Source of the DNA: an uncultured Haloferula sp. | GTDB lineage: Bacteria; Verrucomicrobiota; Verrucomicrobiia; Verrucomicrobiales; Akkermansiaceae | Length of the DNA: 64,000 nt | Assembly: GCA_965652295.1 (NCBI GenBank) | Contig: CBFGTS010000016.1 | Coordinates: 40,257-104,256 of the forward strand | Direction of reading: 5' to 3' | The notes under the pieces: generated by a model | Databases searched by the model: none | What the model saw: only the letters and a program-made list of their open reading frames with translations | What the model was told of the DNA's origin: nothing | Translations under genes and position numbers: made by a program | In this document: one piece after another, positions 15,057 through 33,669 of the stretch | Layout of the letters: every line of letters starts with the position of its first letter | Numbering within the stretch: position 1 is the stretch's first letter

Positions 15057-15089
15057 GAGAGGCGGCCCGGCAGTCGCGCCGGAAGCGGG

Positions 15090-15141
15090 TTACACCGGCG
15101 AGTTTACTTTCGTGGGGCCGGATGTAAACTGGAGAGTTTAC
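15090..15141. promoter_or_regulatory. Two TetR operator copies (TTACACCGGCGAGTTTAC 15090-15107; GTAAACT-GGAG-AGTTTAC 15124-15141)
   Basis: One perfect palindrome plus a degenerate copy in the divergent OMF/tetR intergenic region. Confidence 0.7.
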
Positions 15142-15189
15142 TTTTTTAGCGTTTGGATTCAGCCTCGGCGCTTCACGGTGGTTTGGCAA

Positions 15190-15875: not shown

Positions 15876-17513
15876 CTACCAGTCCAGTAGAAGGTTGTAG
15901 GAGAAGACGCGGTTGTCGGGGAGGGTGGGCGTTTCGTCATTGTCGATCTTGTCGTAAACGTTGCGCGGCGGGGAGATGGTACTGTCCTTGCCGTGGATGA
16001 AGTCCTGATCTTCGACGATGCAGCGGTAGGCCTTGTTGAGGGCGAGGGCGCGTTCACGGGACGGGGTGATGAGGTCGTAGACGTCCCTGGCTTTCGCGAG
16101 CTTTTCGCGGTCGAGCCGGCCATCGGTGAACCAGCGCTGCTCCATTTCATCATTGTTGCGGAACTCGCTGCCGCCGCCGACGCGGGCGAGGTAGGTGGCG
16201 ATTTCGCCCGTGGATTCGCCTTTCGAAGGGGCGTCCGGCATGCCTTTGAGGTTGATGTAGCCCCAGCCTTCCGCTCCATCGACCTTGCGGGGAAACGAGA
16301 AGGTCTTGTCGACCGTCACGCCCACGGCGTTGTGACAGCCCATGCAGGAGAAATTTTCCTCGAAGGTCATCGCACGCAGGCGGCCTTCGGCGTTCTCGAT
16401 GAAACCCTGGACGACCCAGCCGCTTTTGTTGTCGATGCCCTGATCGCCGAGGCCGAGGTAGTTCGGCAGGTTGCCGGCGTCCTTTTCGAAGCCCTCCTCC
16501 TCGTAGCGGCGGGCATAGACGGCCTTGTTGGCGGCCTTGGCCTTGCGCAGGTAGCGGACCTCCTTCATGCGGGTGGAGACGCCGATGGTGCCATCGCTTT
16601 CCACGCCGACGTAGCGGACGGTGTGGAGGAACTCGGTGCCCTGCGGGTAAAGATGGGTGTCGATGAACTCGCCGGCGGCGGCTCCGGTCCACGAGTCGAG
16701 ACGGGTGATCCGGATGGCGGTGCCGAGGTGTCCGTCGCCATCGAGGTCGAGGCCGAGTTCGCGCTCATCGACCGGCAGGCAGGTGATGGACTCAAGGCCC
16801 TTCATCTTCGCTTCGAGAATGGCGAGGTTGCTACGGTAAACATCGTTGCTGGGTGAGCCATCGGCGTTGCTGCGGAAGGCTTCGGGCAGCCGGATCATGA
16901 CGTCGTCGGTCGATCCGTTGGTCGGCCAGAAGGTGCTGGGGAGCGGCTTGTAGTTGAAGGCGACCCAGCCGGAGCCGTCGCGGGCGAAGCCGTTCTCATC
17001 GAAGGCGGCGGGGCCGAGGTGGAGGTCGGCGAGGTCGGGGATCCAGCCTTCGAAACCGGCTTCGCGGAGGCGGCTGGGAAGTTCGGAGTAGTTGTCCTGG
17101 CGGATGTAGGCGATGATCTCCTCGTCGCTGATGCGGGCCACGCGCTCGGAGCGGTCTTCGAAAAGGTTCTGCCAATGATTGGTCATGCCGAGGTCGCTGA
17201 AGGCGTAGTCGCGCTGCAAGTCCCCATCGCCGAGGACGTTCTCGCGACCCTCGATCGGGTTCTGGTGGCAGACGTAGCAGGGATTGTGGCGGGCCTCGGT
17301 GAGGGTGTAGCACTGCGGAGGGAGCACGGCCTCGGCGTTGGCGAGGATGTGCTTCGGATGGACGTCGGGCACCGGCGGGAGGACGCCGCGGGAGGCCTTG
17401 AGCGCGCCGATCATGCGCTCCGGCGTGGCGTTTTCCACGACCTCCGGCGTGGTGGCGGAAAGGGCGGAGAGGACGGGGAGCGCGACGACGACAAGAAGAG
17501 GTTTCATTTTCAT
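15876..17513 (-). CDS. Exported hypothetical protein with two CxxCH motifs (putative di-haem c cytochrome)
   Basis: Sec-type signal peptide; CYVCH near the N-terminus, CMGCH in the C-terminal third; a DLDGDGHL Ca-binding-like loop. Confidence 0.65.
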   Translation of the reverse strand: MKMKPLLVVVALPVLSALSATTPEVVENATPERMIGALKASRGVLPPVPDVHPKHILANAEAVLPPQCYTLTEARHNPCYVCHQNPIEGRENVLGDGDLQRDYAFSDLGMTNHWQNLFEDRSERVARISDEEIIAYIRQDNYSELPSRLREAGFEGWIPDLADLHLGPAAFDENGFARDGSGWVAFNYKPLPSTFWPTNGSTDDVMIRLPEAFRSNADGSPSNDVYRSNLAILEAKMKGLESITCLPVDERELGLDLDGDGHLGTAIRITRLDSWTGAAAGEFIDTHLYPQGTEFLHTVRYVGVESDGTIGVSTRMKEVRYLRKAKAANKAVYARRYEEEGFEKDAGNLPNYLGLGDQGIDNKSGWVVQGFIENAEGRLRAMTFEENFSCMGCHNAVGVTVDKTFSFPRKVDGAEGWGYINLKGMPDAPSKGESTGEIATYLARVGGGSEFRNNDEMEQRWFTDGRLDREKLAKARDVYDLITPSRERALALNKAYRCIVEDQDFIHGKDSTISPPRNVYDKIDNDETPTLPDNRVFSYNLLLDW

Positions 17514-17524
17514 GAAGGAAGAGA

Positions 17525-17550
17525 GGGGGCGGGCCGTTGAGCCCGCCCCC
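17525..17550. terminator. GC-rich hairpin between the phoX-like gene and the cytochrome gene (attenuator or mRNA stabiliser)
   Basis: GGGGGCGGGC-CGTTGA-GCCCGCCCCC; no strong U tract on the minus strand. Confidence 0.45.
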
Positions 17551-17579
17551 CGTGGTTTGTTCTGCCAGGAACAGGAAAA

Positions 17580-19163
17580 TCATTCGCCGAACTGGACCGG
17601 CGCGCGGTTCAGCTGGTTCACGAAGTGTTGGTTGTCGATATGGGAGACGTTGAACATCCACACCGCGTCGCCGAGGCCGTCGGGGACATCGGCGAGGTCG
17701 GTGCTGTCCGGGTGCTGGACGCAGACGGCGAACTCGGTCGGAATGGCCGGGTTCCAGATCATGCCGGTGGCTTCCGAGCCATCGACGCGAAGGCTGAGGA
17801 AATGGTCGAGCGACTCGCCGACGCCATCGTTGTTGACGTCGCGCACCATCCAGATGTCGCCTCCGGTGCTGGAACTGTTCGGGGAATCCTCGATGACGTA
17901 AATGTTGCCGAGAGCGTCGATGGCGAGGTTGTCGGGCGAATTGAGGGTGCCGCTGGTGCCGGCGAAGCCAGCGTTTTTCGGGGTGCCGGCTTCGCTGGCG
18001 AAGACGCGGACGATCGCCTTGCCGCTCGGGCCGGCTGGCTGCGGTGAGGCCCAGGGATTGAAATGAGCACCGCGGCTGCGGTGGGAGCGGTTCCAACCCC
18101 ACCAGCCCCGGCGTGCCGGGTTTTCGAGGATCTCAATGGAATAGACGGACGCCTCCGAAGTGGCGGTGAAGTAGATGACCTCGTTGCCGTTGGCGAGGCG
18201 GCTGATGGCCATGTCCTCGGGACGACCGAAAGGCGTGCCCCCGGCGTCGTTCGCCGCGACGCGGCCGGCGCGATAGGACAGGTTGTCGAAGTCATCGACG
18301 AAGGGATCGGTGATGCCCGGCAGCGGCGTGCCGCTGGCGTCGGTCAGCGGCACCCAGGTGGCGGCACCGGTGCGGGTGGCCGCGCCATTGGTGGCGCTGT
18401 TCCAGTTTTCAGATGACGAGCCTTGGAAGGCATCCACGGAAAGGATGAAGGTTTGGCCTTGGGTGTAGTCGCCTGCGGTGGACATCACGAACTTGTAGAT
18501 CGAGCCCGAATTGTCCTCGTCCACGAAGTAGATCGTGTCGTTGAACTTCTTCGAGAAGTTGATGCCTTCGTGGGAGACGTTGGCGATGCTATCGAGCACC
18601 CGGGCTTCGACATCCCCGGCGGAGGCGAAGGGATTGAGGACCTCGACCACGCGGCCGGTGCCGGCCCATTCCTCGGCGAGGAAAAGGGTGCCGTTCGGGG
18701 TGAATCGGCACGGGTCGAATGCGCCGAAGTCGTTGGTATAGTCACCGGTTTCCCCCTGGCCATCGCCTTGGAAGATCAGCTCGGCATGGTTGTCGTAGAC
18801 GCTGTAGCGGGTGACGCCGGCGCTCCACTGCGTTTCATGAGGGATGAAGAGGTATTCGCCGTTCGGATCGTAGGCGATCATGTCGAACATCGAGGCGTTG
18901 CTGCCGAGGTTGGCGGCGCGGAGGGTGGATTGGCCGTAGCTGAGGACTTCGTCCTCGACCTCGCGGAGGCTGAGAACATTTTTCTGGCTGATGCCGGCGG
19001 GAGAAACCCAGGGCGAGGTGAGTTCCTCCGCCGAGTTCGGAGAGGTGACGGGTGCGGATTCGGTCAGTGGTGTGAACCAGACCGGCGTGCCGGCGAAGGA
19101 GGCGCCGGAGGTGGCGACAAGGGCGGCCAGGAGAAGCTGGCGGCGGGTGACAAGGCGTTTCAT
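17580..19163 (-). CDS. phoX: PhoX-like (DUF839) alkaline phosphatase, Tat-exported
   Basis: TRRQLL twin-arginine signal; PhoX motifs IPHE, TPNGTLFLAEE, SHEG, DED..GSIYKF, RPED, SPDNL, IED, SEATG and VQHP. Confidence 0.8.
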   Translation of the reverse strand: MKRLVTRRQLLLAALVATSGASFAGTPVWFTPLTESAPVTSPNSAEELTSPWVSPAGISQKNVLSLREVEDEVLSYGQSTLRAANLGSNASMFDMIAYDPNGEYLFIPHETQWSAGVTRYSVYDNHAELIFQGDGQGETGDYTNDFGAFDPCRFTPNGTLFLAEEWAGTGRVVEVLNPFASAGDVEARVLDSIANVSHEGINFSKKFNDTIYFVDEDNSGSIYKFVMSTAGDYTQGQTFILSVDAFQGSSSENWNSATNGAATRTGAATWVPLTDASGTPLPGITDPFVDDFDNLSYRAGRVAANDAGGTPFGRPEDMAISRLANGNEVIYFTATSEASVYSIEILENPARRGWWGWNRSHRSRGAHFNPWASPQPAGPSGKAIVRVFASEAGTPKNAGFAGTSGTLNSPDNLAIDALGNIYVIEDSPNSSSTGGDIWMVRDVNNDGVGESLDHFLSLRVDGSEATGMIWNPAIPTEFAVCVQHPDSTDLADVPDGLGDAVWMFNVSHIDNQHFVNQLNRAPVQFGE

Positions 19164-19365
19164 GTGTTTCGTAGTTTGATTGCTGGTGCCAGTGGGCGCG
19201 GAGAATGACGCGCCCGGCCCGGGAGCCTCTGAGGGATTGATCGCCCCGGGACATCTCCTTTAGGGTGCCGGTTGTTTCACATGGCGGTTTCGTCGCTTTC
19301 CAGTCGCTGCGAGATCGTGTTTGATGAGATGGGCCGGTCGGCCATGGGGGCAGACCAAGCGGGGT

Positions 19366-19406
19366 CGTCACATGGGTCCGGAGCACTCGTGACGGAAGCG
19401 TCACAT
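19366..19406. promoter_or_regulatory. Candidate Pho-box-like site (CGTCACAT x2, 33 bp apart; GTGACG-GAAG-CGTCAC)
   Basis: Lies in the divergent phoX/TBDR intergenic region; same motif at 23071-23098 and 26711-26762. Confidence 0.5.
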
Positions 19407-19461
19407 GGGGCGGCTTCATGGATGGCGGCGGGGCGGCTACGCCCTTCCCGCTTCCCGCCCG

Positions 19462-22400
19462 ATGCACGCTCTCCGTTTTCCGCTCCCCACACCGGCCGTC
19501 CTCACGCGTCGCCTGAGGAAATGCATCGCGGTCGCCGCAATTCTCAGCGGGCTTGGCGGCCTGGTCCTGCCGGTTTCCGCCGAGGGGTTGCCGCAGGCGG
19601 CCGGGGTCTTCACCTTCGAGGAGTTCTCTTCCCTGCTTCCGCAAAAGGACGGCTCGCCCCGCGGTGTGGTGCGCTTTGAAACCGCCGCGGCCGGTTTCCT
19701 GCTGGCGGATGAGGAATCCCTCCCGGCGTGGCGATACCTGCGATGGACGATGCCGCCGGGCCCATGGGCGGGAACTACGATGGATCTCGTGGATGCGTCC
19801 GGCATCGGGCTCGCGCCGCCGGAGGGCGGGGAGGATCTCGAGGGTCCGTGGGTTCCCGGCGATGTCGCTCAAGGTCCCGCTCCGGTTGCGAAAGGCGAAC
19901 TTGCCGGCAATCCGCTGCCGATCGAGCAGCGCGCCGGTACCGCCGTGCTGGAGGGCGAGGTTTCCGACGTGACGACGCTCGAACCCATCGCCGGGGCGAT
20001 CGTCTCCGTGACCGGAACCGGCCGCGAGGACGAGACGGATGCCCAGGGGCGCTTCCGCATCACGAATCTACCCGAAGGCAACGCCACCGTGGAAGCGTTG
20101 AAGCTCGGCTACTCGACCGGCACCGCGGCAGCGACTTTGCGGAACGGCACCACCGCCGAAGTTCGCATCGCCTTGCGGGTGAAATCCCAGGACACCCATG
20201 AGGGCGAATACATGCTGGCGGAGGAGTCGATTGTCGGGGAATACAACGAGTCGAATCAGGGGGATTTCAATCTGGATCTGGATCTTTCGACACCGACGCT
20301 CCGGAGCGGGATGACCGAGGAGGAGTTCACCAAGGCGGCGGTGAGTGACGCGGGCGAAGCGTTGGAGAAAGTGTCGGGTGCCAACGTCGTGGATGGAGCT
20401 TTCGCGGTGGTTCGAGGACTGGCCGACCGTTACGTGACGACCACGCTCAATGGCGGTCAGATTTCCTCGGCGGTGCCCGACCGAAAGGCGGTGCGGCTGG
20501 ACCTTTTCCCGACCTCCGCGATGCGGGCGATCGTGGTAGACAAGCTTTATCGGGAGCCGTTGCTCGGCGACTTCGGCGGCGCTGCGATCGATCTTCAAAC
20601 CAAAATCTTCCCCTCCGAGCCGGTGGTCGATTTCAAGTACAAGCAAGAGTTCAATCCGTCCCTGCCGGATTACATCCTGCTGCCGAACGACAGTGATCTG
20701 GGGTATTTCAGCAGTCTCGGCGGCGGTCGGAAGATCAATCTGGACTCGCTCATCGGCGACAATGGCTTTCTCATTCCCGGTCAGCCGACGAAAAGCGCGG
20801 GGGCCCCGCCGACGGTGCCCGAGGCGCAGGCGGCCTGGCTCGCACTGTTCGACTCGCGAGACCTGCGTCCGAGTGCCCGAAGAAGTCGGGACGAGGAGTC
20901 CTTCAGTGCGACGATCGGAAACACGTATTCCCTATCGGATGACCTCAAGTTCGGATTCCTGATCGCGGGCGGGGCCAAATCGGAAGACAGCTACAATGCG
21001 ACGGAAGTTCTTCAGGTGAACGGAACCACGTGGGATGAAGAGGAGTTCCAGCGCCAGTATGAATGGAACCTCTACGCGGCGGCGGGCCTCAAGTTCAGGG
21101 ACCAGCACGAGATCACCGCCACCTATTTCCGAAAAAACATTACTCAGGACAACGTCACGACGGCCCGCAACATCGAGGATGGGGAGATTTACGGCACGCC
21201 GGAATTCTTCAACGCTACCACAAGGCTTTATGGTGCGGCGGCGACGCTTCGTGGGAATTTTGAAGAGATCGATCCGCTGGAGCAGGATCTTGAACTGCTC
21301 CAGTTCGCCGGGAAACATCAGTTCGGTGAGCGGGGACCTACTCTCAAGTGGGCCTTCACCGAGTCCGACGCCCTTGAGGAGCGGCCGAACTACTCGCTCT
21401 TCCAGTGGACCACGCTCGACTTCACGGACGACCAGGCTTTCGACCTTGCCCGTGGGATCGAGAACCAACGGCTCTTTAGCCAGATTGCCCGATCGTTTCC
21501 AGACGCTCCCACGTTCCAGTCCCTTGATGAAGCGGGGGAATTCCTGCTTTCCAAGGGTGTTCCGCAGGCGAGCGTGACGCGGGCGCTGGATGCGGTGCTC
21601 GCGCGATACCCGGTGGTCGATCCTTCGCTTGGGGCCATCGATACCCTGGCTCTCCTCGCGATCACCCAGCAGGCGGGGCCAGGCAATTACTCGCCGAGAA
21701 CTACTCAGAAGATTGAGGAGAACACGGTGGACCAGCGGCTCGACCTGGATGTTCCTTACTATTTCAGTGAGGACGATGAGACCGCCGGGGTGCGGCTTAA
21801 TATGGGGTTTTCCAATGTGGAGAAGGAGCGCACTTCGCAAATCTCCATCTTTGACCTCATTCCCGAGTTTCAGGACGCCGCGGGCAACAACATCTACGGC
21901 CTGCCCGAGGAGCTGTTGGTCCAGCTTGGAGAGGAGTTCGTCAACAACCCGCAGCTCCTGCGCGACTTCATCACGGGTTACTGGGCGGGCTCGATTTACT
22001 TCAACGACAACACGCTGGGCAACAACCTCAGTCCGCCAGCGCAGTTGATCAACAACGTCGAGGGCAGCCACAAGATCACCTCGCACTACCTGGGTGGTGA
22101 GATCTTCCGCGACGATTGGTTCCTGCGCGGAGGCGTTCGCTATGAAAAGGAAGAGCGTTCGGCGGTGATCCTCGATCCCTCACCCATCCTGCCACCCGAG
22201 TTTCAGAACCTTCAGCCCAGCAACTATGAGGAGCTGCTGCCGACCCTTACCGCGGGCTCGAACTACTTCGATGGCAAGGTGAAGCTGATCGCCGGTTGGT
22301 CCCGCACCGCAGCCCGCCCGACCTTCTACGAATGGCTGCCGACGAAATCGATCGACCTCTCGACCGGTTTCATCCGGCAGGGCAATCCGTTCCTTGAGAA

Positions 22401-23055
22401 CTCGGAGGTCACAAACTATGACCTCGCGATCGAGTATCTCTTGAATCCGAGCACCAGCGCGCGGGTCAGCTTTTTCCACAAGACCATCACGGCGCCGGTG
22501 ATTGAGCAGCGGTTGACCTCCGATTTCATCACCTATAGCAACGGGGAGGACAGCAGCCTGAGCGGCGTCGAGTTCGAGTTGGATATCCAGGATCTCGGCC
22601 CCTTCTCCCTCGGCGCGAATTTTACCTACATCAATGCGGAGCTGCTATATGAGGTGGAGAATCCGTCGACCGGTCTTGATGAGATCACCGCAGTCCAGTT
22701 CCCCTACCAGCCCGAGTGGCTCGCCAACTTCAATCTTGGGTATGAGCACGAAAAATGGGGCCTCGCTGTCAATCTGATCTATAACTTCACCGGGGCCTAC
22801 AACACGATCCTGCGGCGAACGGAGGCGGATCCGAATCTGGAGCAGCAGTCGACACAGTCGATCGACCTGGTGTTGCGAAAGACCTGGGAGGATGTGATGG
22901 GCGTGGAGTTCGAGCTGGGTGCGGGGGTGAAGAACCTGTTCGCGACGGACCGTGAACTGGTCTGGCGCGGCGGCGCGCCGACGATTGATGGCAGAACCCA
23001 TCGCACCATCGACGCGCAGCGAACCTACTTCGTTGAGATGAAGTGCTCGTTCTGA
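19462..23055 (+). CDS. TonB-dependent receptor with N-terminal carboxypeptidase-regulatory-like domain
   Basis: Signal peptide after MHALR (start uncertain); G.VSD..T.EPI.GA.VSV domain; plug motif SDAGEAL.KVSG...VVRGL.DRY..T.LNG; RPTFYE, GNP.LE, GVEFE, VKNLF; C-terminal Phe. Confidence 0.9.
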   Translation: MHALRFPLPTPAVLTRRLRKCIAVAAILSGLGGLVLPVSAEGLPQAAGVFTFEEFSSLLPQKDGSPRGVVRFETAAAGFLLADEESLPAWRYLRWTMPPGPWAGTTMDLVDASGIGLAPPEGGEDLEGPWVPGDVAQGPAPVAKGELAGNPLPIEQRAGTAVLEGEVSDVTTLEPIAGAIVSVTGTGREDETDAQGRFRITNLPEGNATVEALKLGYSTGTAAATLRNGTTAEVRIALRVKSQDTHEGEYMLAEESIVGEYNESNQGDFNLDLDLSTPTLRSGMTEEEFTKAAVSDAGEALEKVSGANVVDGAFAVVRGLADRYVTTTLNGGQISSAVPDRKAVRLDLFPTSAMRAIVVDKLYREPLLGDFGGAAIDLQTKIFPSEPVVDFKYKQEFNPSLPDYILLPNDSDLGYFSSLGGGRKINLDSLIGDNGFLIPGQPTKSAGAPPTVPEAQAAWLALFDSRDLRPSARRSRDEESFSATIGNTYSLSDDLKFGFLIAGGAKSEDSYNATEVLQVNGTTWDEEEFQRQYEWNLYAAAGLKFRDQHEITATYFRKNITQDNVTTARNIEDGEIYGTPEFFNATTRLYGAAATLRGNFEEIDPLEQDLELLQFAGKHQFGERGPTLKWAFTESDALEERPNYSLFQWTTLDFTDDQAFDLARGIENQRLFSQIARSFPDAPTFQSLDEAGEFLLSKGVPQASVTRALDAVLARYPVVDPSLGAIDTLALLAITQQAGPGNYSPRTTQKIEENTVDQRLDLDVPYYFSEDDETAGVRLNMGFSNVEKERTSQISIFDLIPEFQDAAGNNIYGLPEELLVQLGEEFVNNPQLLRDFITGYWAGSIYFNDNTLGNNLSPPAQLINNVEGSHKITSHYLGGEIFRDDWFLRGGVRYEKEERSAVILDPSPILPPEFQNLQPSNYEELLPTLTAGSNYFDGKVKLIAGWSRTAARPTFYEWLPTKSIDLSTGFIRQGNPFLENSEVTNYDLAIEYLLNPSTSARVSFFHKTITAPVIEQRLTSDFITYSNGEDSSLSGVEFELDIQDLGPFSLGANFTYINAELLYEVENPSTGLDEITAVQFPYQPEWLANFNLGYEHEKWGLAVNLIYNFTGAYNTILRRTEADPNLEQQSTQSIDLVLRKTWEDVMGVEFELGAGVKNLFATDRELVWRGGAPTIDGRTHRTIDAQRTYFVEMKCSF

Positions 23056-23070
23056 GCGGCGGATCGATGG

Positions 23071-23098
23071 GTGACGGAGGATGTGACGAATCCGTTTC
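23071..23098. promoter_or_regulatory. Candidate Pho-box-like site (GTGACG at 23071 and 23083)
   Basis: Same hexamer as the other island intergenic sites; spacing here is 12 bp. Confidence 0.35.
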
Positions 23099-23195
23099 AT
23101 CAAAGTGGTCTGCGGATGCCGGGGCGATTTCTAGGGTCCCTCGCCGCCCGATGAGAATCAGTGCGAAGGGTGGCAAATCTAGTCGTCTCCAACCT

Positions 23196-26100: not shown

Positions 26101-26648
26101 GTGACGGGTCAAACAACGTGGTTTCCATCGACCCACGCCCGACGACGCTGAACACCAGCGTTCAAAGCGGAGCGCCGGTGACGGCGAATTACCGTGGTGC
26201 GTTCGATTCGAGCGATCTCTGGATCGACAGCTGGACCGCACTCTCGGCCTACGGTTACCTGATGGCACCAGCGACCGATACCGACGGCGACGGTCTCTCC
26301 GACGACGACGAGACCAACGTCCACGGCACCGATCCGAACCTTGCCGACACCGATGGCGACGGCATCAACGACGGCGTCGAGGTGACGTATGCCTCGCTCG
26401 GCTTCGATCCGACCGTGGCCGACGCGGCCAGCGTCTTCGGAGGCCTCTACACCGAGTCGTCGATCCAGGATCTCGCCACCGCTGGGCAGGTGATCATCCA
26501 GGCCAACGGCGCGAACGTGGACCTGACCCTCCCGGTCTACACCTCGGAGGACCTCAGCACCTGGACGCCGGCCGGTGACCTGGAGCTGACGATTCCCAAG
26601 GACGGCGACAAGCAGTTCTACCGCATCGAAGTCAGTGGCGCTGAATAA
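23196..26648 (+). CDS. Large secreted surface protein: two ~499-aa beta-helix-like domains, TSP3-like Ca-binding repeats and a C-terminal ...FYRIE tail
   Basis: Signal peptide; the family motif WGGLIVLGNA...DDSGTLQYISIRHGG...NEINGLTLGGVGSGTTIDHIEV...DDGIEFFGGTVN occurs twice; DTDGDGLSD..E...GTDP..ADTDGDG.NDG.E; SEDLSTW...QFYRIEV. Confidence 0.8.
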   Translation: MKQHYPMNPAWIAGLLSLGAVAASQAADIDVVATQLAATDKNGINWGTPVLATDTTWTADNIYILTDRVYVTDGTTLTIEPGTRIYSTNSDPLNTPGDPSDDSVGSVIISRGAKIEAAGTANAPIIFDAIENLEAERGVDLNGDSVVASALGASDTAKWGGLIVLGNASISLVNTSSQPVRNDVIEGTTPVGSRNADSDNFSDLLEYGYDGLFPQDDADDSGTLQYISIRHGGFNLSADNEINGLTLGGVGSGTTIDHIEVFANEDDGIEFFGGTVNCSHLSVSFCKDDGIDIDQGYNGNLQFVFVVQNNNGDNLGEWDGIDTNDGAAKVGNTAALPSSPQIWNATFVGGSAANGPKAGAGKDNGLYLDDNFNGALRNSIIHDVMGHLAEFAGDGHFQSTDAQTGDNPAAAATAGFQSITVGAIGAGSTTSTVVTGGGRPSDFYSEDFLGDLENDNSEPGQDPMFTRYTRDGSNNVVSIDPRPTMLNTSVQSGAPVAANYRGAFDSSDLWIDSWTALSEYGLLDEPVVDVVATQLAATDKNGINWGTPVLATDTTWTADNIYILTDRVYVTDGTTLTIEPGTRIYSTNSDPLNTPGDPSDDSVGSVIISRGAKIEAAGTANAPIIFDAIENLEAERGVDLNGDSVVASALGASDTAKWGGLIVLGNASISLVNTSSQPVRNDVIEGTTPVGSRNADSDNFSDLLEYGYDGLFPQDDADDSGTLQYISIRHGGFNLSADNEINGLTLGGVGSGTTIDHIEVFANEDDGIEFFGGTVNCSHLSVSFCKDDGIDIDQGYNGNLQFVFVVQNNNGDNLGEWDGIDTNDGAAKVGNTAALPSSPQIWNATFVGGSAANGPKAGAGKDNGLYLDDNFNGALRNSIIHDVMGHLAEFAGDGHFQSTDAQTGDNPAAAATAGFQSITVGAIGAGSTTSTVVTGGGRPSDFYSEDFLGDLENDNSEPGQDPMFASYTRDGSNNVVSIDPRPTTLNTSVQSGAPVTANYRGAFDSSDLWIDSWTALSAYGYLMAPATDTDGDGLSDDDETNVHGTDPNLADTDGDGINDGVEVTYASLGFDPTVADAASVFGGLYTESSIQDLATAGQVIIQANGANVDLTLPVYTSEDLSTWTPAGDLELTIPKDGDKQFYRIEVSGAE
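23283..26254 (+). repeat. Intragenic tandem duplication, period 1497 bp (23283-24757 / 24780-26254)
   Basis: Direct comparison of several segments; alternative-frame ORFs in the two copies translate identically (114, 60, 67 and 86 aa ORFs offset by 1497). Confidence 0.97.
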
Positions 26649-26673
26649 TCTCCCGTAGTTCGCATCTCCTCCC

Positions 26674-26706
26674 AAAGCCGTCCGGGTTCGTCCCGGGCGG
26701 CTTTTT
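26674..26706 (+). terminator. Rho-independent terminator
   Basis: AAAGCCGTCCGGG-TTCGT-CCCGGGCGGCTTTTT directly after the surface-protein gene. Confidence 0.85.
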
Positions 26707-26710
26707 GCTT

Positions 26711-26762
26711 TGTGACGAAACTCCCGGAGATCCGTCACCTCTCTCTGACGAAAGCGTCACAT
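26711..26762. promoter_or_regulatory. Candidate Pho-box-like site upstream of the TonB operon
   Basis: CGTCAC at 26733 and 26755 (22 bp apart); GTGACG/CTGACG at 26712 and 26745 (33 bp apart); CTGACG-AAAG-CGTCACAT. Confidence 0.55.
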
Positions 26763-26820
26763 CGAACCCGTGGGCAAAGCGGCGGGCGGGAGGTTTGATT
26801 CGCCCGCTTTGCGACGAGCC

Positions 26821-27606
26821 ATGCGTATCCCCATCCTTTCCCTCATCCTCGTGCCGTTGTTCGCGGCTCGGGCCTTCAGCCAGGAAGCCGATCTTTCCGA
26901 GACGGCCAAGCTCAAGGAATCGGTCCGCGAGTGGATCGAAACCATGCGCGAGATCCAGATCGAGGAAACCACCTGGGAGCGCGACCGGGAGCTGTTGGAA
27001 GGCCAGCGGGAATCGCTGGACAGCGAAATCTCTGACCTGAAGAAACGTCTCGAAGACGCTCGCGAGGAGAAGTCCGGAGCGGACCAGCAATCGGTGGAGG
27101 AAGTCGCCCGCCGCGACGCGCTGGTGAAGGCGGACGAGAAGCTCGCCGCCGAGGTTCGGGAGCTGGAGAAAGGTCTCGTCGCCCGTTTGTCATCCTTTCC
27201 ACCGCCGCTCGCGGAGGACCCGCGGATCAAGGAACTGATGGAGCAGGTGCGGAAGGACGTGACGGTGACGGGCGAGGAAGCGGGAAAGAACCTCACCAAG
27301 CGGCTGAACAACGTGCTGAACCTGCTCACCGAGGCGGAGAAATGGCAGCAGGCGGTGCATTTGCGCGAGGAACTCCGGACGGCGGACGATGGCCGCAAGT
27401 TCAACATGCAGGTGATCTACTATGGTCTTGGTAGTGCGTATGCGGTCAACGAGGCCGGTGACTACGCGCTGGTGGGCACGGCCGGCGAGTCCGGATGGAT
27501 TTTCGAGCCGCGAAACGAACTCGCCCCGCAGATCCGGGAAATGGTCTCGGTGCTGACCGGCGACGCCGAGGCGCGCTTCACCACTCTTCCTCTTTCTCTC
27601 CCATGA
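26821..27606 (+). CDS. DUF3450 family coiled-coil periplasmic protein (TtpB-like)
   Basis: Signal peptide, long coiled coil, C-terminal ..IYYGLG.AYAV...G.W...A..I...LP; first gene of the TonB operon. Confidence 0.7.
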   Translation: MRIPILSLILVPLFAARAFSQEADLSETAKLKESVREWIETMREIQIEETTWERDRELLEGQRESLDSEISDLKKRLEDAREEKSGADQQSVEEVARRDALVKADEKLAAEVRELEKGLVARLSSFPPPLAEDPRIKELMEQVRKDVTVTGEEAGKNLTKRLNNVLNLLTEAEKWQQAVHLREELRTADDGRKFNMQVIYYGLGSAYAVNEAGDYALVGTAGESGWIFEPRNELAPQIREMVSVLTGDAEARFTTLPLSLP

Positions 27607-29045
27607 AACTCCGGATTCCCCTGATCTCGCTGGGCCTCATCGGCGCGGTGGCGGCCCAGACGACTTCCGAGCAGCAGCTCGCCGAGGCTCGTGACGAACT
27701 GAAAAAGACGCGCGCGGAATACACCGCGATGCGGACGGACCTTTTCCGCCAGATCAACAAACTGGACGACGAGGCGCTGGAGCTGGGTCGCGAGCTGCGG
27801 GCGCTGGAGCGGGAGGCCGAGCTGCGGAACAACCGTGAGCAGGCGCTGAAGCGTGAGATCGAGGGCCGCGAGGCTGGGTTCAACTATACGACCGGTATTC
27901 TCAACCAGTATGGCGACGCGTTCCTCACCCGCCTCCATCCGGCGGAAAACCAGCTCTACAAGAGCCGGATCGATGACGCCGCGGCGAAGGCGACGGCCGC
28001 CGGCGAGGACCTGATGTCGGAGCTCGACCAGCGGCTCGTGGCCGCCCGCACCGGTCTTGAGCGTCTTGGCAACGTGATCGGCGGTCATCGCTTCGAGGGC
28101 GAGGGTCTGCGCAATGGCAGTGAGGCGATCCGGGGCAAGTTCCTCGTGCTCGGCCCGTCCGTTTACATGGCGGAATCGGACGGTGGCTTCGAGGGCGTGG
28201 CGACCTTCGCCGCCGGCGGCACCGCCTTGCCGACGGTCGTCGCCCTTCAGGATGTGCCGGAGAGCGCGATCGCCGAGGTGATTCAAACCGGCTCCGGCGG
28301 GCTTCCGTATGATCCGACCATGGGCAAGGCGATCGAGGTGCAGGCCGCGGAGGAGTCCATCGGCGAGACGATCGAAAAGGGCGGCATCGTCGGCCACGCG
28401 ATCCTGCTTCTGGGCGCGGTCGCGATTGGTCTGACCCTCTTCAAGGTCCTCGAGATCACCCGTTTCCCGGTGCCTTCGCGTCGGCTGGTCAACGAGATCC
28501 TCGACGACCTGCTGGCCGATCGCCAGGACGCCGCCGCGAAGAAAGCCGCGACTGTTCCCGGCATGGCCGGCGCGTTGGTCCGCACCGGAGTGGAGCGTTT
28601 CTACGAGAAACGCCGCGTGCTGGAAGAGGCGCTGTTCGAAAAGCTGGTGTGCATCAAGCCGCGGCTCGAGCGCTTCCTGCCGTTCCTCGGGCTCACAGCT
28701 GCGGCGGCTCCGCTGATGGGTCTGCTCGGCACCGTGCTCGGCATCATCAAGACCTTCAAGGCAATGGCTCTCTACGGCTCCGGCAACCAGAAGGCCTTCA
28801 CGCAGGGCATTTCCGAGGCGCTCATCACCACGGCCGAGGGTCTGGTGGTCGCGATCCCGGTGCTGGTGCTCCACGGCCTGATGAAAAGTCTCGCCCGCGG
28901 CAAGTTCTCCGAGATCGAGGGCGTGGCCATCTCGCTGATGAACGGGACGACCGAACTCGAGCGCTCCGCCGATGCCAAGGCGGGAGCCGCGACCCGCGAG
29001 GACGAAGGCGACGGCGACTCCGAACTGCTTCCCAACCCCGCCTGA
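27603..29045 (+). CDS. Large MotA/TolQ/ExbB family protein (TtpC-like)
   Basis: Signal peptide, coiled coil, DPTMG motif, then ExbB TM motifs AAPLMGLLGTVLGII..F and GISEALITTAEGLVVAIP. Confidence 0.85.
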   Translation: MKLRIPLISLGLIGAVAAQTTSEQQLAEARDELKKTRAEYTAMRTDLFRQINKLDDEALELGRELRALEREAELRNNREQALKREIEGREAGFNYTTGILNQYGDAFLTRLHPAENQLYKSRIDDAAAKATAAGEDLMSELDQRLVAARTGLERLGNVIGGHRFEGEGLRNGSEAIRGKFLVLGPSVYMAESDGGFEGVATFAAGGTALPTVVALQDVPESAIAEVIQTGSGGLPYDPTMGKAIEVQAAEESIGETIEKGGIVGHAILLLGAVAIGLTLFKVLEITRFPVPSRRLVNEILDDLLADRQDAAAKKAATVPGMAGALVRTGVERFYEKRRVLEEALFEKLVCIKPRLERFLPFLGLTAAAAPLMGLLGTVLGIIKTFKAMALYGSGNQKAFTQGISEALITTAEGLVVAIPVLVLHGLMKSLARGKFSEIEGVAISLMNGTTELERSADAKAGAATREDEGDGDSELLPNPA

Positions 29046-29051
29046 CGAGCC

Positions 29052-29654
29052 ATGCTGTCGCTTTTCCGTGACGCCCTTCAGACCTTCCTCACCGGCGGAG
29101 GGATCATGTACATGCTCGGCAGCGTGGCCTTCATCCTTTACGCCACGGCCTTCGCCGCGCTGGCCTATGTTTCCCGGGGAAACCTGAACGACAAACAGTC
29201 GGCCGACTGGCCCCAGTGGCTCCGCGATCCGGAGAAGGCTCCGGGACGCCTCGGCGAGGCGCTGCGCTACGTGGTCCACGGCGATCGACTTACGATCAAG
29301 ATCGTGCAACGCCGCATGTCCGAGGTGCGCACCAACGTCGTGTCCGCCATCGACCGCCGCCTGCTGGTCGTCAACACCCTCACCGCCGCCGCGCCGCTGG
29401 CCGGGCTGCTGGGCACCGTGATGGGGATGCTGGCGATGTTTTCCGGCCTCGCCCAGGGCAAGGGGCAGGCGGGCATGCAGGCCGTGGCCAATGGCATGCA
29501 GGAGGCGCTCATCACCACCCAGACCGGCCTCACCATCGCGCTGCCCGGGCTTTTCATCGCGCTCATCGTGAAGGGCAAGCGCGATGCGGTCGCGGCCGCC
29601 CTGGCACGGCTCGAATCCCTCATTCTCACCACGCGCTTCCACCGCGAACACTGA
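29052..29654 (+). CDS. exbB: ExbB/MotA/TolQ proton channel
   Basis: APLAGLLGTVMGM..MF and G..EALITTQTGL.IALP. Confidence 0.88.
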   Translation: MLSLFRDALQTFLTGGGIMYMLGSVAFILYATAFAALAYVSRGNLNDKQSADWPQWLRDPEKAPGRLGEALRYVVHGDRLTIKIVQRRMSEVRTNVVSAIDRRLLVVNTLTAAAPLAGLLGTVMGMLAMFSGLAQGKGQAGMQAVANGMQEALITTQTGLTIALPGLFIALIVKGKRDAVAAALARLESLILTTRFHREH

Positions 29655-29660
29655 TCCGCC

Positions 29661-30071
29661 ATGTTTGGAAAATCCCTTGGAGACGAAGGCGACGACGAGG
29701 TCCACATCGACCTCTCGCCGATGATCGACTGCATTTTCATCCTGCTCATCTTCTTCATCGTCTCGACAGTCTTCGTCGAGGAAACGGGCGTGAAGGTGAA
29801 CAAGCCGGATGTCGGAGCCGCGGCCAGCGCGCTGGACAGCAACTCGATCCTGCTGGCGGTGACCAAGGACGACAAGGTGTTCTACGGCGGCGAAAGCATC
29901 GGCATCCAGGGGATCATCGGAAAGATCAAGCCGCTGCTGGCGGAGACGCCGGACATGCCGGTGATCATCCAGGGCGACAAGGACGCCACCCACGGCACCG
30001 TCCAGCGGGTCCACGGTCAGGCGATGCTCGCCGGTGCCCAGAAGGAGAAGATCTCCGTTTCTACCAAATAG
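29661..30071 (+). CDS. exbD: ExbD/TolR
   Basis: [23 protein letters not shown] and VIIQGD. Confidence 0.92.
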
Positions 30072-30078
30072 ACCGTAG

Positions 30079-30732
30079 ATGGCGAAGAAACTCCACGTAT
30101 ATCGGCCTCCGCGCGGGCGCTTCACCGGGATCTTCGCGATCCTCGGCGGCGTCGTCGCGACCATTGCCGTGTTCGTGGTCATCCCGCTTTCGCAGCGCCT
30201 GGCGGAGACGCTTTCTCCGCCGGTCGCAGCGCCGCCGGAGGTGGCCGTGGAGCCGCCGGAGGATTTCAACGTGGAACTTGAGGAGCCGCCGGAAGAGGTC
30301 GAGGAAACCCCTCCGGAGGAGCCGATGGAAGAACCGGCGAACCTCGACCTCGGGCTGGATCTCGGGGATCTCTCGGTGGGAACCGGCGGATCGTTCATCG
30401 TCGAGATTCCGAAGTTCGCGATGGCGGGAGGCGATGATCCCTTTGGAAGCGGCGATCTCGACAGCCCGCCGCAGCCGGTCACGAAATCCCAGCCCGTCTA
30501 TCCCAGCAAGCTGCTGAGCAAAGGCATCGGCGGCAAGGTGGTGGTGGCCGTGACGGTCGCCGCCGACGGCAAGGTGGCGGGCGCGAAGGTCCGCGATTCG
30601 TCCGGCAACCGCGATCTCGATGCGGCCGCGCTCAAGGCGGTGCGGAAGTGGAAGTTCAGGCCCGCCGTCAGCGGCGGAAGGAAGATTCAGGCCACGGCTT
30701 TGGTGCCGTTCAACTTTGAAGTGAAGCGATGA
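30079..30732 (+). CDS. tonB: Energy transducer TonB
   Basis: N-terminal TM, Pro/Glu-rich spacer, C-terminal P.YP....GI.G.V.V...DG.V...LD.AA..AV.KWKF.PA. Confidence 0.92.
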   Translation: MAKKLHVYRPPRGRFTGIFAILGGVVATIAVFVVIPLSQRLAETLSPPVAAPPEVAVEPPEDFNVELEEPPEEVEETPPEEPMEEPANLDLGLDLGDLSVGTGGSFIVEIPKFAMAGGDDPFGSGDLDSPPQPVTKSQPVYPSKLLSKGIGGKVVVAVTVAADGKVAGAKVRDSSGNRDLDAAALKAVRKWKFRPAVSGGRKIQATALVPFNFEVKR

Positions 30733-32249
30733 AGAAGAAGCAAAGCAGATGGTGGATGGTGAATGTTGGATGGTGGATCATCGTGGCCAGCGCTCTTTCC
30801 GTGGCCACGCCGGCACTCGCCGAAAAGATCATCCCTCCATCGAACCTGTTCCGCGATCCGCAGTTCGTGCGCGAATTCGTGGGGAGCTACGGCTTCCATT
30901 CGGAAATCGAACCGAAGGTCTCCCCGGAGGAGAGCCGGGTGCTGGTGAAGATCCAGGAGCTGTTCGAGGAGTCGAAGTTTTCCGAGGCGGAAACGGAGAT
31001 GGTCCGCTTCATCAAGGAGACCGAGGCACCGACGGATCCCGAGAAGCAGCCCCGCGAGATCAGCGCGGCGATGGTGTTCGTACTAGGGAACCTGTATTTC
31101 TCCGCCGATCGCACCGAGGAGGCGCGGCGTGCATTTCTGGAAGCGATCCGTCGTTTTCCGAAGTTCCGCCGGGCGCACGTGAACCTCGGCTATCTCTATG
31201 TTTCCAAGGAAGAGTTCGACAAGGCCCAGGGGCACTTCCAGGAGGCGATCTCGCTCGGTGAGGGCAGCCCGCGGGTCTTCGGCCTGCTCGGCTACACCTA
31301 CCTGTTGAAGCAGCAGGCATTGGCGGCGGAGAATGCCTACCGCCAGGCATATCTGCTCGATCCGAATTCGAAGGACTGGAAGCTCGGACTCGCGCAGGCG
31401 CTGATCCAGCAGGAGAAGTTCGACGAGGCCTCCGCGCTGCTCGGCAATCTGGTGGAGGAATTTCCCGAGGACCCGCAACTCTGGCTCCAGCAGACGAACG
31501 CGCTGCTCGCCCAGGAAAAGAAGGTCGAGGCCGCGGTGAATCTGGAGATCCTGCGGATGAAGGGGCTTGCGGGAGAAGGCGAACTCACGCTGCTCGGCAA
31601 TCTTTACATGGACCAGAACGAGCCGCAGCTCGCACTCTTCGCCTACCTCGCTGCACTGGAGAAGGCAGGCACGCTGAACGTCGATACCGCACTCAAATCG
31701 GCCAAGATCCTCAACGATTACGGCTATCCGGAGAAGGCGGCGGCCTACGTCGAACAGGTCCGCGCCAAGGGCGGGTCGAACCTTTCCACCGATGACCGCG
31801 TGAAGATCGACCTGATCGAGGTCCAGATCGCCCGCGCCGACAACAACCTCGAACGGGTTGGTGCCCTGCTGGAAGACCTGCTCGCCCGCGATCCGGCGAA
31901 CGGCGAAGTGCTGCTGGAACTCGGCAAGCACTACGACACGCTCGCAAAGAACGCCGAAGACGAGGACAGGAAGAGCGAATACCTCAACGAGGCGAAGACC
32001 CGCTTCCAGATCGCCGCCGGCCGCGAGGGCGATGTCGGCTACGGCGCGAATCTGGCTCTGGGGCAGCTCTTCACCCGCGAGCTGCAATACACGGACGCGC
32101 TGCCTTACCTCGAAAAGGCCGCCGAGATGAAGCCGAGTGACAATCTGAAGTCCTACGTCAGCAAGGTCCGCCGCGCCGCCGACCGCCAACGTCAGCGGGA
32201 GGAGCGAGAAGCCGCCGACCGTGAAGCCAAAGACAAAGCCAAGCAATGA
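30729..32249 (+). CDS. Periplasmic TPR protein (TtpD-like)
   Basis: Signal peptide; several TPR-like helical repeats (LGNLY, AHVNLGYLY, LGLAQAL). Confidence 0.8.
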   Translation: MKKKQSRWWMVNVGWWIIVASALSVATPALAEKIIPPSNLFRDPQFVREFVGSYGFHSEIEPKVSPEESRVLVKIQELFEESKFSEAETEMVRFIKETEAPTDPEKQPREISAAMVFVLGNLYFSADRTEEARRAFLEAIRRFPKFRRAHVNLGYLYVSKEEFDKAQGHFQEAISLGEGSPRVFGLLGYTYLLKQQALAAENAYRQAYLLDPNSKDWKLGLAQALIQQEKFDEASALLGNLVEEFPEDPQLWLQQTNALLAQEKKVEAAVNLEILRMKGLAGEGELTLLGNLYMDQNEPQLALFAYLAALEKAGTLNVDTALKSAKILNDYGYPEKAAAYVEQVRAKGGSNLSTDDRVKIDLIEVQIARADNNLERVGALLEDLLARDPANGEVLLELGKHYDTLAKNAEDEDRKSEYLNEAKTRFQIAAGREGDVGYGANLALGQLFTRELQYTDALPYLEKAAEMKPSDNLKSYVSKVRRAADRQRQREEREAADREAKDKAKQ

Positions 32250-32262
32250 TTTGCAACTTTCG

Positions 32263-32340
32263 ACCGCAGATGAACGCCGATGGACGCAGAGGAAGAGTTC
32301 GGCTGAATCGTGAGCTGCGTTCGTCCCCGGTTATCTGAGT
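32263..32340. repeat. Degenerate 10-bp-period inverted repeat (CGCAGATGAA-type) between the TPR and porin genes
   Basis: ACCGCAGATGAACGCCGATGGACGCAGAG ... CTGCGTTCGTCCCCGGTTATCTGAGT. Confidence 0.4.
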
Positions 32341-32364
32341 TTTTCCACTCCCGCATCATTTTCC

Positions 32365-33669
32365 ATGAAGATTCCGTTCATCCTCGCCTGTGCTACGGCA
32401 TGCATCGTAGCCGCCCCCGCCAACGACGCGCTCGACATCCTCGAGGGCAACAAGAAGGTCGATGACGTCACGCTGCCGCCGCTGCCCGACGGCGCGGAAG
32501 GCGCGGAGGAGGAAAAACCGGCCGTGTTCGTGGAGAAGGCGTGGTCGCCGAATCCGAGGCTCGACCCGATCTGGTCGCGCGCCGTGCTTTACGACAAGCC
32601 CGATGATCCGTGGGTCCAGCAGCTTGCGATCATGGGATTCTTCGAATTCGGCGGCGCGTGGGGCGATGCCGAGGTCGAGGGAGCTCGGAACGTCGAGCTG
32701 GACACCAGCCGCACGCGCCGTGCGCGGCTGGGCGCGCGGATGAAGATTTTCGGCAACACGGAGATCGAGACGGTGGGCGAGTTCGCCGGCGACAGTGAGT
32801 TCCAGCGACTGGAGCGGTTGAAAGGAAAGACCGGACTGCCGAAGGGGTTTGCGGTCGAATACGGCAAGTTCCGCCCGCATTTCGGAATCGAGGGCTCGAA
32901 GGATCCGCACCAGCTCCTCACGCCGGAGCGTTCGCTGCTGGCGTCGATGTTGATGCCTGCCAGCACCTTGGGAGCGTCCGTTTCCCAGCAGATCAATGCC
33001 TGGGAATGGCACCTCGGATGGTTTTCCGGGGACAATGATCGCTACGTTCCGGGCTTCGAGGGCAACGGATTCATCGCCGCGGGCCTCGCGTATCAGATGG
33101 ATGAGCGGATCGAGGGCGGCGACGTGATGCGCACGCGCTGGCACCTCGACTACATCCACAACATGGACCACCGGAAGAGCCGGTCGATTCCGCGCTACAA
33201 CGTCGCAGGCAGGACGGCGGCGAACGGTCCCCAAGGTCCGATTTCGAATCCGGCGTTCCGGCATCTCGTTTCCACCGGCTTTTCGGCGGAGGGCGAACGC
33301 TTCGGTTTCGAGGGCGACTTCATGCTGGCGAACGGCGATCTCAACGCGTGGGGCATGACGCTCACGCCGAGCTACTGGGTGCTTCCCGAGCGCCTGCAAA
33401 TCGTGGGCCGCTACCACTACGCGGACACCGACGCGGCGGGCGGACTCATCGGCGGGCTCGGTGTGGGTGGCGATCCGCTTTTCGACACTTCACCGCTGTT
33501 CGTGGGCGACGAGTTTCATTCATTCTACCTCGGGGCCAACCTGCATCTTTATCAGGACAAGGTCGTGTGGCTCAACGGCCTTGAGTATTCCATCATGAAG
33601 GACCAGGCCGGTGCCGGGTTCGACACCGACGGCTTCATCTGGCATTCCGCCGCACGGGTATCGTTCTAA
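32365..33669 (+). CDS. Outer-membrane porin, OprO/OprP-like (phosphate-selective family)
   Basis: Signal peptide, RRARLG basic ladder, YGKF.PHFG.EG..S...L...ERS, alternating beta strands, C-terminal Phe. Confidence 0.7.
   Translation: MKIPFILACATACIVAAPANDALDILEGNKKVDDVTLPPLPDGAEGAEEEKPAVFVEKAWSPNPRLDPIWSRAVLYDKPDDPWVQQLAIMGFFEFGGAWGDAEVEGARNVELDTSRTRRARLGARMKIFGNTEIETVGEFAGDSEFQRLERLKGKTGLPKGFAVEYGKFRPHFGIEGSKDPHQLLTPERSLLASMLMPASTLGASVSQQINAWEWHLGWFSGDNDRYVPGFEGNGFIAAGLAYQMDERIEGGDVMRTRWHLDYIHNMDHRKSRSIPRYNVAGRTAANGPQGPISNPAFRHLVSTGFSAEGERFGFEGDFMLANGDLNAWGMTLTPSYWVLPERLQIVGRYHYADTDAAGGLIGGLGVGGDPLFDTSPLFVGDEFHSFYLGANLHLYQDKVVWLNGLEYSIMKDQAGAGFDTDGFIWHSAARVSF

Follow-up and report, generated by a model that had tools for sequence, protein, structure and literature searches.

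In Flavobacterium johnsoniae, four 'phosphate utilisation systems' (PUS) are reported to be induced by depletion of inorganic phosphate (Pi) (PMC8115612). One of these, PUSIV (Fjoh_0541-0549), is described as combining a TonB-dependent transporter (TBDT) of domain make-up PF07715/PF13715/PF14905, the pectin-lyase-fold lipoprotein FII, OprP, phoBR and a PF04101 transferase, and the flavobacterial proteins FI-FIII are given as 31-36% identical to Caulobacter ElpS (PMC8115612). A preprint reports that PusCD1/2 import organophosphate and calls the function of Pus3/4 hard to predict (bioRxiv 10.64898/2026.09.03.749221). In Caulobacter crescentus, ElpS (CC0170) is reported to be induced by Pi starvation, and its overproduction to raise phosphatase activity (PMC2996285). 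Flavobacterium phoX, in turn, is said to lie in an operon with the MauG-like fjoh_2477 and to be inactive when expressed alone (PMC8812569), while Burkholderia BthA, a di-haem protein encoded beside a purple acid phosphatase, is described as a good peroxidase (PMC6405878). Here we analyse a cluster of eleven genes (g1-g11) at positions 15876-33669 of a 64,000-nt window from an uncultured Haloferula sp. (CBFGTS010000016.1, 40,257-104,256), in which a PUSIV-like importer adjoins a PhoX-fold protein with a di-haem neighbour.

All coordinates are positions within this window, i.e. the whole stretch of DNA that was analysed; its own genome is G000, with contigs given as C-numbers. All 11 cluster proteins were scanned against Pfam, and bit scores were set against the family cut-offs. 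As described in the first-pass annotation, the genes are contiguous and divergently arranged: two minus-strand and nine plus-strand open reading frames (ORFs), diverging at 19164-19461, fill the interval. We consider it roughly 60% probable that this locus scavenges phosphorus under Pho control in a verrucomicrobium that the names of its homologues place near Haloferula/Luteolibacter, and that it is composed of two independently mobile modules that would act by the mechanism proposed below. Module A comprises the di-haem gene g1 and the PhoX-fold gene g2; module B comprises the TBDT, a beta-helix protein, a Ttp-type TonB motor and a porin (g3-g11). The island is not a conserved 18-kb machine. 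Two Pho-type units that are adjacent in few genomes have come together here: module B is conserved, and the g1-g2 pair is mostly unlinked to the TBDT.

The search with g4 covered 41 genomes and was positive in 25, including the own genome; the 24 relatives are represented by 20 loci fetched from 19 of them. Eleven of the 14 genus genomes fetched show the full order TBDT-beta-helix-ttpB-ttpC-(exbB)-exbD-tonB-TPR-porin (the short exbB is missing in 3 of the 11), and module B is cut by contig ends in the other three. Genes g1 and g2 share one distribution, 13 of 24 genus genomes, and are neighbours in all 12 in which both fall on one contig. Relative to the TBDT, the pair adjoins it in one of these 13 genomes, lies elsewhere in eight and cannot be judged in four; furthermore, G001, G008 and G015 contain module B, and neither g1 nor g2 was found in them. 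Loci with g1 relatives number 430 in GTDB. We examined the best 80 of these 430, to which all counts of g1 loci below refer and which overlap the genus set; a TBDT homologue adjoins g1 in three (L036, L037 and L109). The earlier expectation that the components would prove syntenic thus held for the nine plus-strand genes, which are conserved in the genus, and failed for the link between g1-g2 and the TBDT. Nor is the island self-contained, as had been proposed: no inner-membrane transporter or regulator is found among its 11 genes. Contig C11 carries pstSCAB-phoU, and C24 a phoBR-like pair.

Evidence for phosphate control comes from the motif GT(G/C)AC-N6-GT(G/C)AC, a palindrome and an 11-bp repeat at once. 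Its presence in three intergenic regions, as claimed before, was borne out: in the g2/g3 divergent promoter (19389-19404, 18.3 bits, with extra half-sites near 19276 and 19367), more weakly upstream of g4 (23083-23098, 11.4 bits, with an extra half-site 11 bp upstream) and upstream of the motor operon (26745-26760, 19.2 bits, second among 2596 upstream regions). The motif resembles the classical PhoB box. Among GT(G/C)AC half-site pairs in intergenic regions genome-wide, those spaced 11 bp apart are the most frequent (8 pairs, whereas every other spacing from 5 to 44 has 0-5). Of 25 pstS upstream regions in genus relatives, 24 contain the motif with at most one mismatch, compared with 5% of mononucleotide shuffles; these 25 are what remained of 28 non-self loci once three partial or weak matches had been set aside. 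In the own genome, sites are also found in front of the porin-pstSCAB-phoU operon, a gene pair with the response regulator and kinase make-up of PhoB/PhoR, and genes for a Na/Pi cotransporter, a VTC protein and an LTD-domain protein.

A matrix was built from the relatives' pstS sites and ranked over the 2596 upstream regions of the own genome, with at least 11 bits counted as positive. It places the island genes g5, g3, g2 and g4 at ranks 2, 7, 8 and 17, alongside pstS (3), the VTC gene (5), the porin-pst operon (9), the Na/Pi cotransporter (10) and the phoB-like gene (11). With this matrix, a box is found among relatives' loci ahead of the TBDT in 12 of 17 (12/12 within the genus), before ttpB in 10/14, before g4 in 4/19 and before g2 homologues in 21/69 (versus 15/800 random windows), and before operon-internal genes of three kinds in 0/41. 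Of the 11 TBDT genes in the own genome, g3 is the sole boxed one. A sigma-70 promoter scan yielded matches at chance level. A CRP-type site was rejected: the spacing of the motif is GTGA-N8-TCAC, and the motif tracks pstS. The motif thus behaves as a candidate Pho box of the lineage, PhoB binding being inferred, and the cluster is probably switched on by phosphate shortage. The pstS test, together with the phosphorus-related neighbours of homologues described below, upholds the phosphorus link suggested at first. We found no paper on a verrucomicrobial locus of such type or on a verrucomicrobial Pho box, in a literature search that covered subscription journals thinly.

Module B is of a known kind, its TBDT/beta-helix core matching the layout of PUSIV and of ElpS/CC0171. 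The TBDT g3 (19462-23055, plus) consists of CarboxypepD_reg, Plug and OMP_b-brl_3 domains, the same Pfam trio as in Fjoh_0545; at 1200 aa it exceeds the other ten TBDTs of the genome (700-925 aa). It is followed by g4 (23196-26648, plus), an exported protein with two 499-aa PF28492 Beta_helix_4 units (ElpS/FII-like) and a TSP3_bac tail, after which lies an intrinsic-terminator-like hairpin (26674-26704, plus). With PUSIII/IV, as far as these are described, the locus shares this trio, an adjacent pectin-lyase-fold surface protein, a PF07396 porin and Pho control. Homologues of g4 sit in a PUSIV layout, the likeness to Fjoh_0546 being one of family and gene layout. The locus differs from PUSIII/IV in its verrucomicrobial host, a boxed six-gene Ttp motor inside the locus, phoBR-like genes located elsewhere and the lack of SusD; moreover, g4 has the TSP3 tail and no lipobox Cys in its signal region, whereas the PUS surface partner is described as a lipoprotein and the flavobacterial homologues carry C19. 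The PusCD-type systems PUSI/II are described with a SusD-like partner; here the SusD Pfam family is matched by none of the 11 proteins, g4 being a beta-helix family protein. The beta-helix profile gave no sequence match in the PDB. By kind of protein and gene layout, the core also corresponds to ElpS/CC0171, where a TBDT is likewise partnered by an accessory protein of the cell surface with a link to Pi starvation, but ElpS is reported to be a lipoprotein encoded next to a type II secretion cluster. The 'phosphorus polysaccharide utilisation locus' put forward earlier is therefore not new, since PUS have been published and PUSIV already combines an ElpS-like protein, OprP and phoBR with a TBDT whose Pfam make-up is the same (PMC8115612).

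The remaining plus-strand genes encode the motor and the porin: DUF3450, TtpB-like g5 (26821-27606); g6 (27603-29045), a long TtpC-like MotA/TolQ/ExbB protein (MotA_ExbB) with an N-terminal extension; ExbB g7 (29052-29654, MotA_ExbB); ExbD g8 (29661-30071); TonB g9 (30079-30732, TonB_C); and the exported TPR protein g10 (30729-32249), assigned as TtpD by position and TPR content. This DUF3450-led six-gene order agrees with the earlier identification of a Ttp-type motor. Vibrio TonB2/TonB3 are reported to have the same order ttpB(DUF3450)-ttpC-exbB-exbD-tonB-ttpD, and the TonB3 operon likewise starts with a receptor gene (PMC6957404). The Vibrio TonB2 operon is described as Fur/iron-controlled, whereas a Pho-box-like site precedes the present operon, which ends in the Porin_O_P gene g11 (32365-33669; PF07396 match marginal, 22.9 bits at a cut-off of 20.9). 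Paralogues of g11 are encoded elsewhere in the genome, one before pstS and one after the VTC gene. A second DUF3450 motor operon, without a box, lies on C13.

The surface protein had been noted as duplicated, and the duplication is genuine. It has a 1497-nt period and is 100% identical across 23343-24574. An assembly artefact was rejected because the repeat has a doubled contig depth (25.1 versus 12-13 in the flanks; reads of run X1, which match the window closely and were used for depth only), because 28 of the 36 codons that differ between the copies are synonymous, and because units of this type occur in two or three copies in 10 related loci. A close single-copy relative (P0121, 89%) may represent an assembly collapse. 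Within genomes, the beta-helix repeats (23283-26267; L003-L007, L009, L010, L012, L013, L021) are 83-97% identical at the DNA level; the three-copy L012 repeats are 68-81% identical, and identities between genomes are 47-82%. The repeats look homogenised, as might result from concerted evolution or repeated re-duplication.

Compared with their counterparts in the sister locus L007, g3 and g4 are 38% and 42% identical, against 74-98% for the flanking island proteins; the receptor pair therefore changes independently. Set in a conserved locus, the two genes form a receptor cassette that has been exchanged or is diversifying fast. Their GC content at third codon positions is mildly low (0.77-0.78, median 0.82). 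An alignment of g4 with 12 homologues of flavobacterial type retrieved 599 metagenome loci. Of the best 80 of these 599, 69 carry a TBDT, 24 a response regulator, 19 a kinase, 16 PHO4, 11 OprP, 7 PF04101 and 4 Na/Pi; among the 32 of these loci that measure at least 15 kb, 25 contain a regulator plus kinase pair, OprP, or a PHO4 or Na/Pi transporter.

The most unusual part of the locus, under-weighted in the first reading, is the di-haem/PhoX pair of module A. Gene g2 (17580-19163, minus) encodes a short PhoX-fold beta-propeller, the sole PF05787 match in its genome (66.8 bits, cut-off 24). The structural model (predicted local distance difference test, pLDDT, 89.9) is a six-bladed propeller whose best fold match is PhoX (E 2e-17, template modelling score 0.56, 14% identity). 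A phmmer search of g2 alone against the PDB gave no PhoX match, whereas a profile search matched PhoX. The ten active-site ligands of PhoX, including a Cys iron ligand, are reportedly given by Yong et al. 2014, and g2 was compared with this list. R385, D292 and the ten-residue site of PhoX are also reported elsewhere (PMC11098088, PMC5768637). In the profile alignment with 3zwu, seven positions pair up directly: E199, D215/E216, R314 and E316 of g2 correspond to E273, D291/D292, R385 and E387, and D411, D426 and E464 to D479, D494 and E532; with E110 and E165 placed as ligand positions by motif, nine of the ten active-site positions are kept. Fold and site are thus shared with Pseudomonas fluorescens PhoX (3zwu/4a9v), from which g2 differs by an Asp for the Cys iron ligand, a length some 100 aa shorter, a twin-arginine signal that is mostly lacking in its family, and the di-haem neighbour. 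Asp150 is invariant in 68/68 g2 homologues at the position of the Cys ligand in three canonical PhoX sequences, so that this Cys is not present in the g2 family. The Asp is also found in 62 of 63 readable PhoX-type representatives among 150 listed. Fusions of Asp-type relatives to phytase-like and choice-of-anchor-I domains favour a phosphatase role for this clade. Two arginines in succession within the first 35 residues occur in 5/68 homologues, g2 included.

Downstream of a GC-rich hairpin between the two genes (17524-17551), which may be terminator-like or stabilising, g1 (15876-17513, minus) encodes an exported di-haem c protein of 545 aa that belongs to PF27085 (Aq_1262 family). Both CxxCH motifs (79-83 and 390-394) are invariant in 70/70 aligned homologues, as are H297, K189 and K317 in the family. 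The model is of lower quality (pLDDT 74) and its N-terminal haem region is poor, but residues ~147-411 form a beta-sheet core whose five best fold matches are all cytochrome P460/c'-beta (Z 4.7-6.6). The alignments extend over 127-138 residues at Z 6.3-6.6, and values below 8 can reflect a common arrangement; Foldseek gives a probability of 0.96 but E 0.012. PF16694 is matched by 69 of 70 homologues at E<=1, three of them at ~1e-5, with up to 26.1 bits, below the cut-off of 27. By contrast, the CCP_MauG Pfam family is matched by none of 70 family members at E<=1, and MauG/bCcP are absent from the listed fold matches of the model, which, given its poor N-terminal haem region, does not exclude a relation. 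No match to g1 was found among PDB sequences. The model is thus suggestive of a core like that of cytochrome P460/c'-beta, not of MauG. Cytochromes P460 and c'-beta bind nitric oxide (NO) or hydroxylamine. With PF16694 proteins g1 would have in common a beta-sheet core ending in CxxCH; it differs in size (545 aa against ~150 aa), in a second CxxCH where they have one haem, and in large insertions, at 10-15% identity.

A g2 relative stands alongside g1 in 74 of the 80 loci, whether upstream, divergent or downstream, and the pairing spans Verrucomicrobiota, Gammaproteobacteria and others. Three of the six loci without g2 are cut by contig ends and three belong to Guyparkeria/Halothiobacillus. 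Cultured species are among the carriers (named records L036-L038, L068 and L074). In a phylum-wide draw g1 occurs in 2/301 and g2-like genes in 3/301, a nearly empty result that adds little. Three of 63 longer g1 relatives carry a PhoX domain (P0242, P0298, P0244), most others having different beta-propellers; P0242 is a complete in-frame fusion of both protein types, and P0244, given little weight, has only the N-terminal half of PhoX. An apparent fusion in L111 was rejected as frameshift read-through and was not counted. Complex predictions for g2 and g1 scored 0.00, 0.52 and 0.00 in three runs and were used neither way. No third gene recurs beside the pair in more than 11 of the 80 loci, and phosphonate or phosphite genes do not recur in these neighbourhoods. 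In 11 of them g1 is followed by a 210-aa protein without Pfam match (L069:3589-4218).

The proposed mechanism combines these elements. Under Pi shortage, phosphorylated PhoB would very likely switch on the three promoters. Like ElpS/FII, g4 would act as a non-catalytic binder or accessory that offers the TBDT a phosphorus compound too bulky for porins, most probably an organic phosphoester, and the TBDT would be energised by its own TtpB-TtpC-ExbB-ExbD-TonB-TPR motor; taken together, these steps are rather probable. It is likely that g2 would serve as an Fe/Ca phosphomonoesterase freeing Pi outside the inner membrane, and that Pi would then enter via the PstSCAB system or Na/Pi cotransporter encoded elsewhere, with the porin g11 admitting Pi alongside these distant systems. 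Tentatively, g1 might serve g2 as its own redox partner: once g2 had been exported unfolded (via Sec), g1 would load the iron of g2 or oxidise it again, the P460-like haem being where the reaction takes place and the N-terminal haem relaying electrons. This role is favoured by analogy with Flavobacterium PhoX and its MauG-like partner (PMC8812569) and with BthA (PMC6405878): in both cases the gene of a di-haem c protein neighbours that of an exported iron phosphatase, which the di-haem protein has been proposed to act upon. These partners are of the bCcP/MauG family, however, whereas the g1 model matches P460/c'-beta, and g1 would therefore be an unrelated solution to the same need. Equally tentatively, PF27085 might be an unrecognised class of P460-fold di-haem enzymes that mature or redox-drive a PhoX clade with an all-carboxylate di-iron site. 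At its boldest, this reading would have the pair oxidise a reduced phosphorus compound. A literature search with thin coverage of subscription journals found no paper on Aq_1262/P460-like PhoX partners; 'aq_1262' was mentioned in none of the papers listed, which is a weak test.

Several observations pull in the other direction. The top-scoring box of the genome lies ~320 nt upstream of dnaA (G000:C12:95035, L024) and further boxes precede genes without known phosphorus role, so the regulon assignment is not airtight; in addition, the pattern for collecting pstS sites was first taken from the island itself, and the relatives are kin, not independent. As most relatives have the two modules unlinked, a hand-over from TBDT to PhoX is not required. 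ElpS itself is reported to be without phosphatase activity and its TBDT partner cc0171 to be constitutive (PMC2996285), and the characterised TtpBCD system is reported to serve iron uptake (PMC6957404). The signal region of g2 contains TRR, so g2 may use the twin-arginine translocation (Tat) pathway. As to the pair, Asp-type PhoX proteins extend far beyond the g1-g2 combination, and in G033 and G111, which carry an Asp-type PhoX, no di-haem gene was found either close by or elsewhere in the genome. A strict rule that the Asp needs a haem partner was rejected on these grounds. The three Guyparkeria/Halothiobacillus loci have g1 without g2, P0298 joins the di-haem domain to a Cys-type PhoX, and the di-haem domain is far more often fused to other beta-propellers than to PhoX. 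PF27085 may thus serve beta-propeller partners besides PhoX. The long PF27085 proteins P0245-P0304 are mostly fused to PD40/TolB-like or cytochrome d1-type propellers, several of them bearing names from Desulfobacterota.

Four other explanations have to be weighed against the two-module reading. That the cluster is one obligate, co-evolved eleven-gene machine, in which polymeric or mineral phosphorus is mobilised by the beta-helix protein, taken in by the TBDT and cleaved by g2, with Pi passing through the porin, might be argued from the box in the divergent promoter shared by g2 and g3, from the gammaproteobacterial L109, where TBDT, beta-helix, di-haem and PhoX-like genes are adjacent, and from L066, where g1-g2 lie beside a Ttp motor, phoU and pstS. 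It is rather improbable, considering that the TBDT adjoins g1 in 3 of the best 80 of 430 loci, that the pair is unlinked in 8/13 genus genomes while G001, G008 and G015 have module B with neither g1 nor g2 found, and that the receptor pair (38/42% identity to L007, flanks 74-98%) changes independently. There is a small chance that module B instead imports a metal, as Fe or Ca complexes, under Pho control and so supplies Fe/Ca phosphatases. PhoX-type enzymes are reported to need iron and calcium (PMC11098088), a six-gene Ttp motor to be required for siderophore uptake in Vibrio vulnificus (PMC6957404), and the beta-helix is rich in conserved Asp/Gly motifs; but g3 is of the 1200-aa CarboxypepD_reg type, unlike the ten TBDTs of 700-925 aa, its relatives have phoBR-like genes, OprP and Pi transporters as neighbours, and the genome has its second, unboxed DUF3450 motor on C13.

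For module A, the invariant Cys-to-Asp change, the P460-like haem fold with H297, K189 and K317, the tight linkage and fusion of g1 and g2, and the box upstream of 21/69 g2 homologues (15/800 random windows) would also be compatible with a two-component redox enzyme for reduced or unusual phosphorus (phosphite, hypophosphite, phosphonate or a P-N bond), the di-iron site of g2 binding the substrate and the di-haem protein carrying electrons. We regard this as very improbable: every Ca ligand and the phosphate-binding Arg are retained in g2, Asp-type relatives exist as fusions to phosphatase/phytase-like domains and also where there is no haem partner, and neither phosphonate nor phosphite genes recur in the 80 neighbourhoods. 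A slim but real chance is left to g1 being a protective peroxide- or NO-handling cytochrome, co-expressed with the iron enzyme and not its maturase. The nearest solved folds are P460 and c'-beta, some of the matched structure entries being titled NO complexes; L090 has g1 near flavohaemoglobin-like and sigma-54-type regulator ORFs (identified from translations only); and BthA is reported to be a good peroxidase (PMC6405878). General detoxification leaves unexplained, however, why g1 adjoins g2 in 74/80 loci in varied orientations, and why in-frame PhoX fusions exist.

PhoX-type enzymes are iron-dependent and constitute major routes of organic-phosphorus turnover in soil and water. Against this background, the g1-g2 pairing hints at an unrecognised way of activating iron-dependent phosphatases. 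If true, a haem partner of new fold would show how a periplasmic Fe(III) cofactor is installed or kept, could explain PhoX proteins that are inactive when expressed alone, and would be a structurally unrelated counterpart to the MauG-like partners of Flavobacterium PhoX and the Burkholderia purple acid phosphatase. Periplasmic iron phosphatases would then have recruited haem maturases repeatedly, and many environmental phoX genes would be inactive alone. The locus would couple this pair to a PUSIV-like importer with a swapped or fast-diversifying receptor pair. For the importer, the analysis extends the ElpS/PUSIII-IV transporter type beyond Bacteroidota and Proteobacteria, the fast-changing TBDT/beta-helix pair being a natural pointer to transporter specificity, and it identifies, in a verrucomicrobial genus, a candidate Pho box with a candidate regulon.

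Further boxed genes of the own genome suggest additional members of this candidate regulon. A boxed operon with a VTC-domain gene, DUF4956 and a Porin_O_P gene (G000:C17:4867-7542, L031) is a candidate polyphosphate-related unit, while an 896-aa exported triple-LTD protein (G000:C18:26356-29046, L025) and a PEP-CTERM protein (G000:C7:36889-37503, L035) are candidate Pho-regulon surface proteins. The pst operon (G000:C11:109371-114798, L023) encodes an unusually long PstC (753 aa) and PstA (539 aa) and two PstB-like proteins, and is preceded by the porin paralogue with three boxes. The box before dnaA might mean that phosphate status and replication initiation are connected, or that another factor shares the motif.

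Both flanks of the cluster apparently lie outside the finding. On the right, 44275-59233 is a sugar-utilisation cluster (GH43, SSF, LacI, GH88 and melibiase). On the left, 9344-15789 holds an RND efflux operon and a divergent TetR gene, the latter of which also adjoins g1 in L036 and L037.

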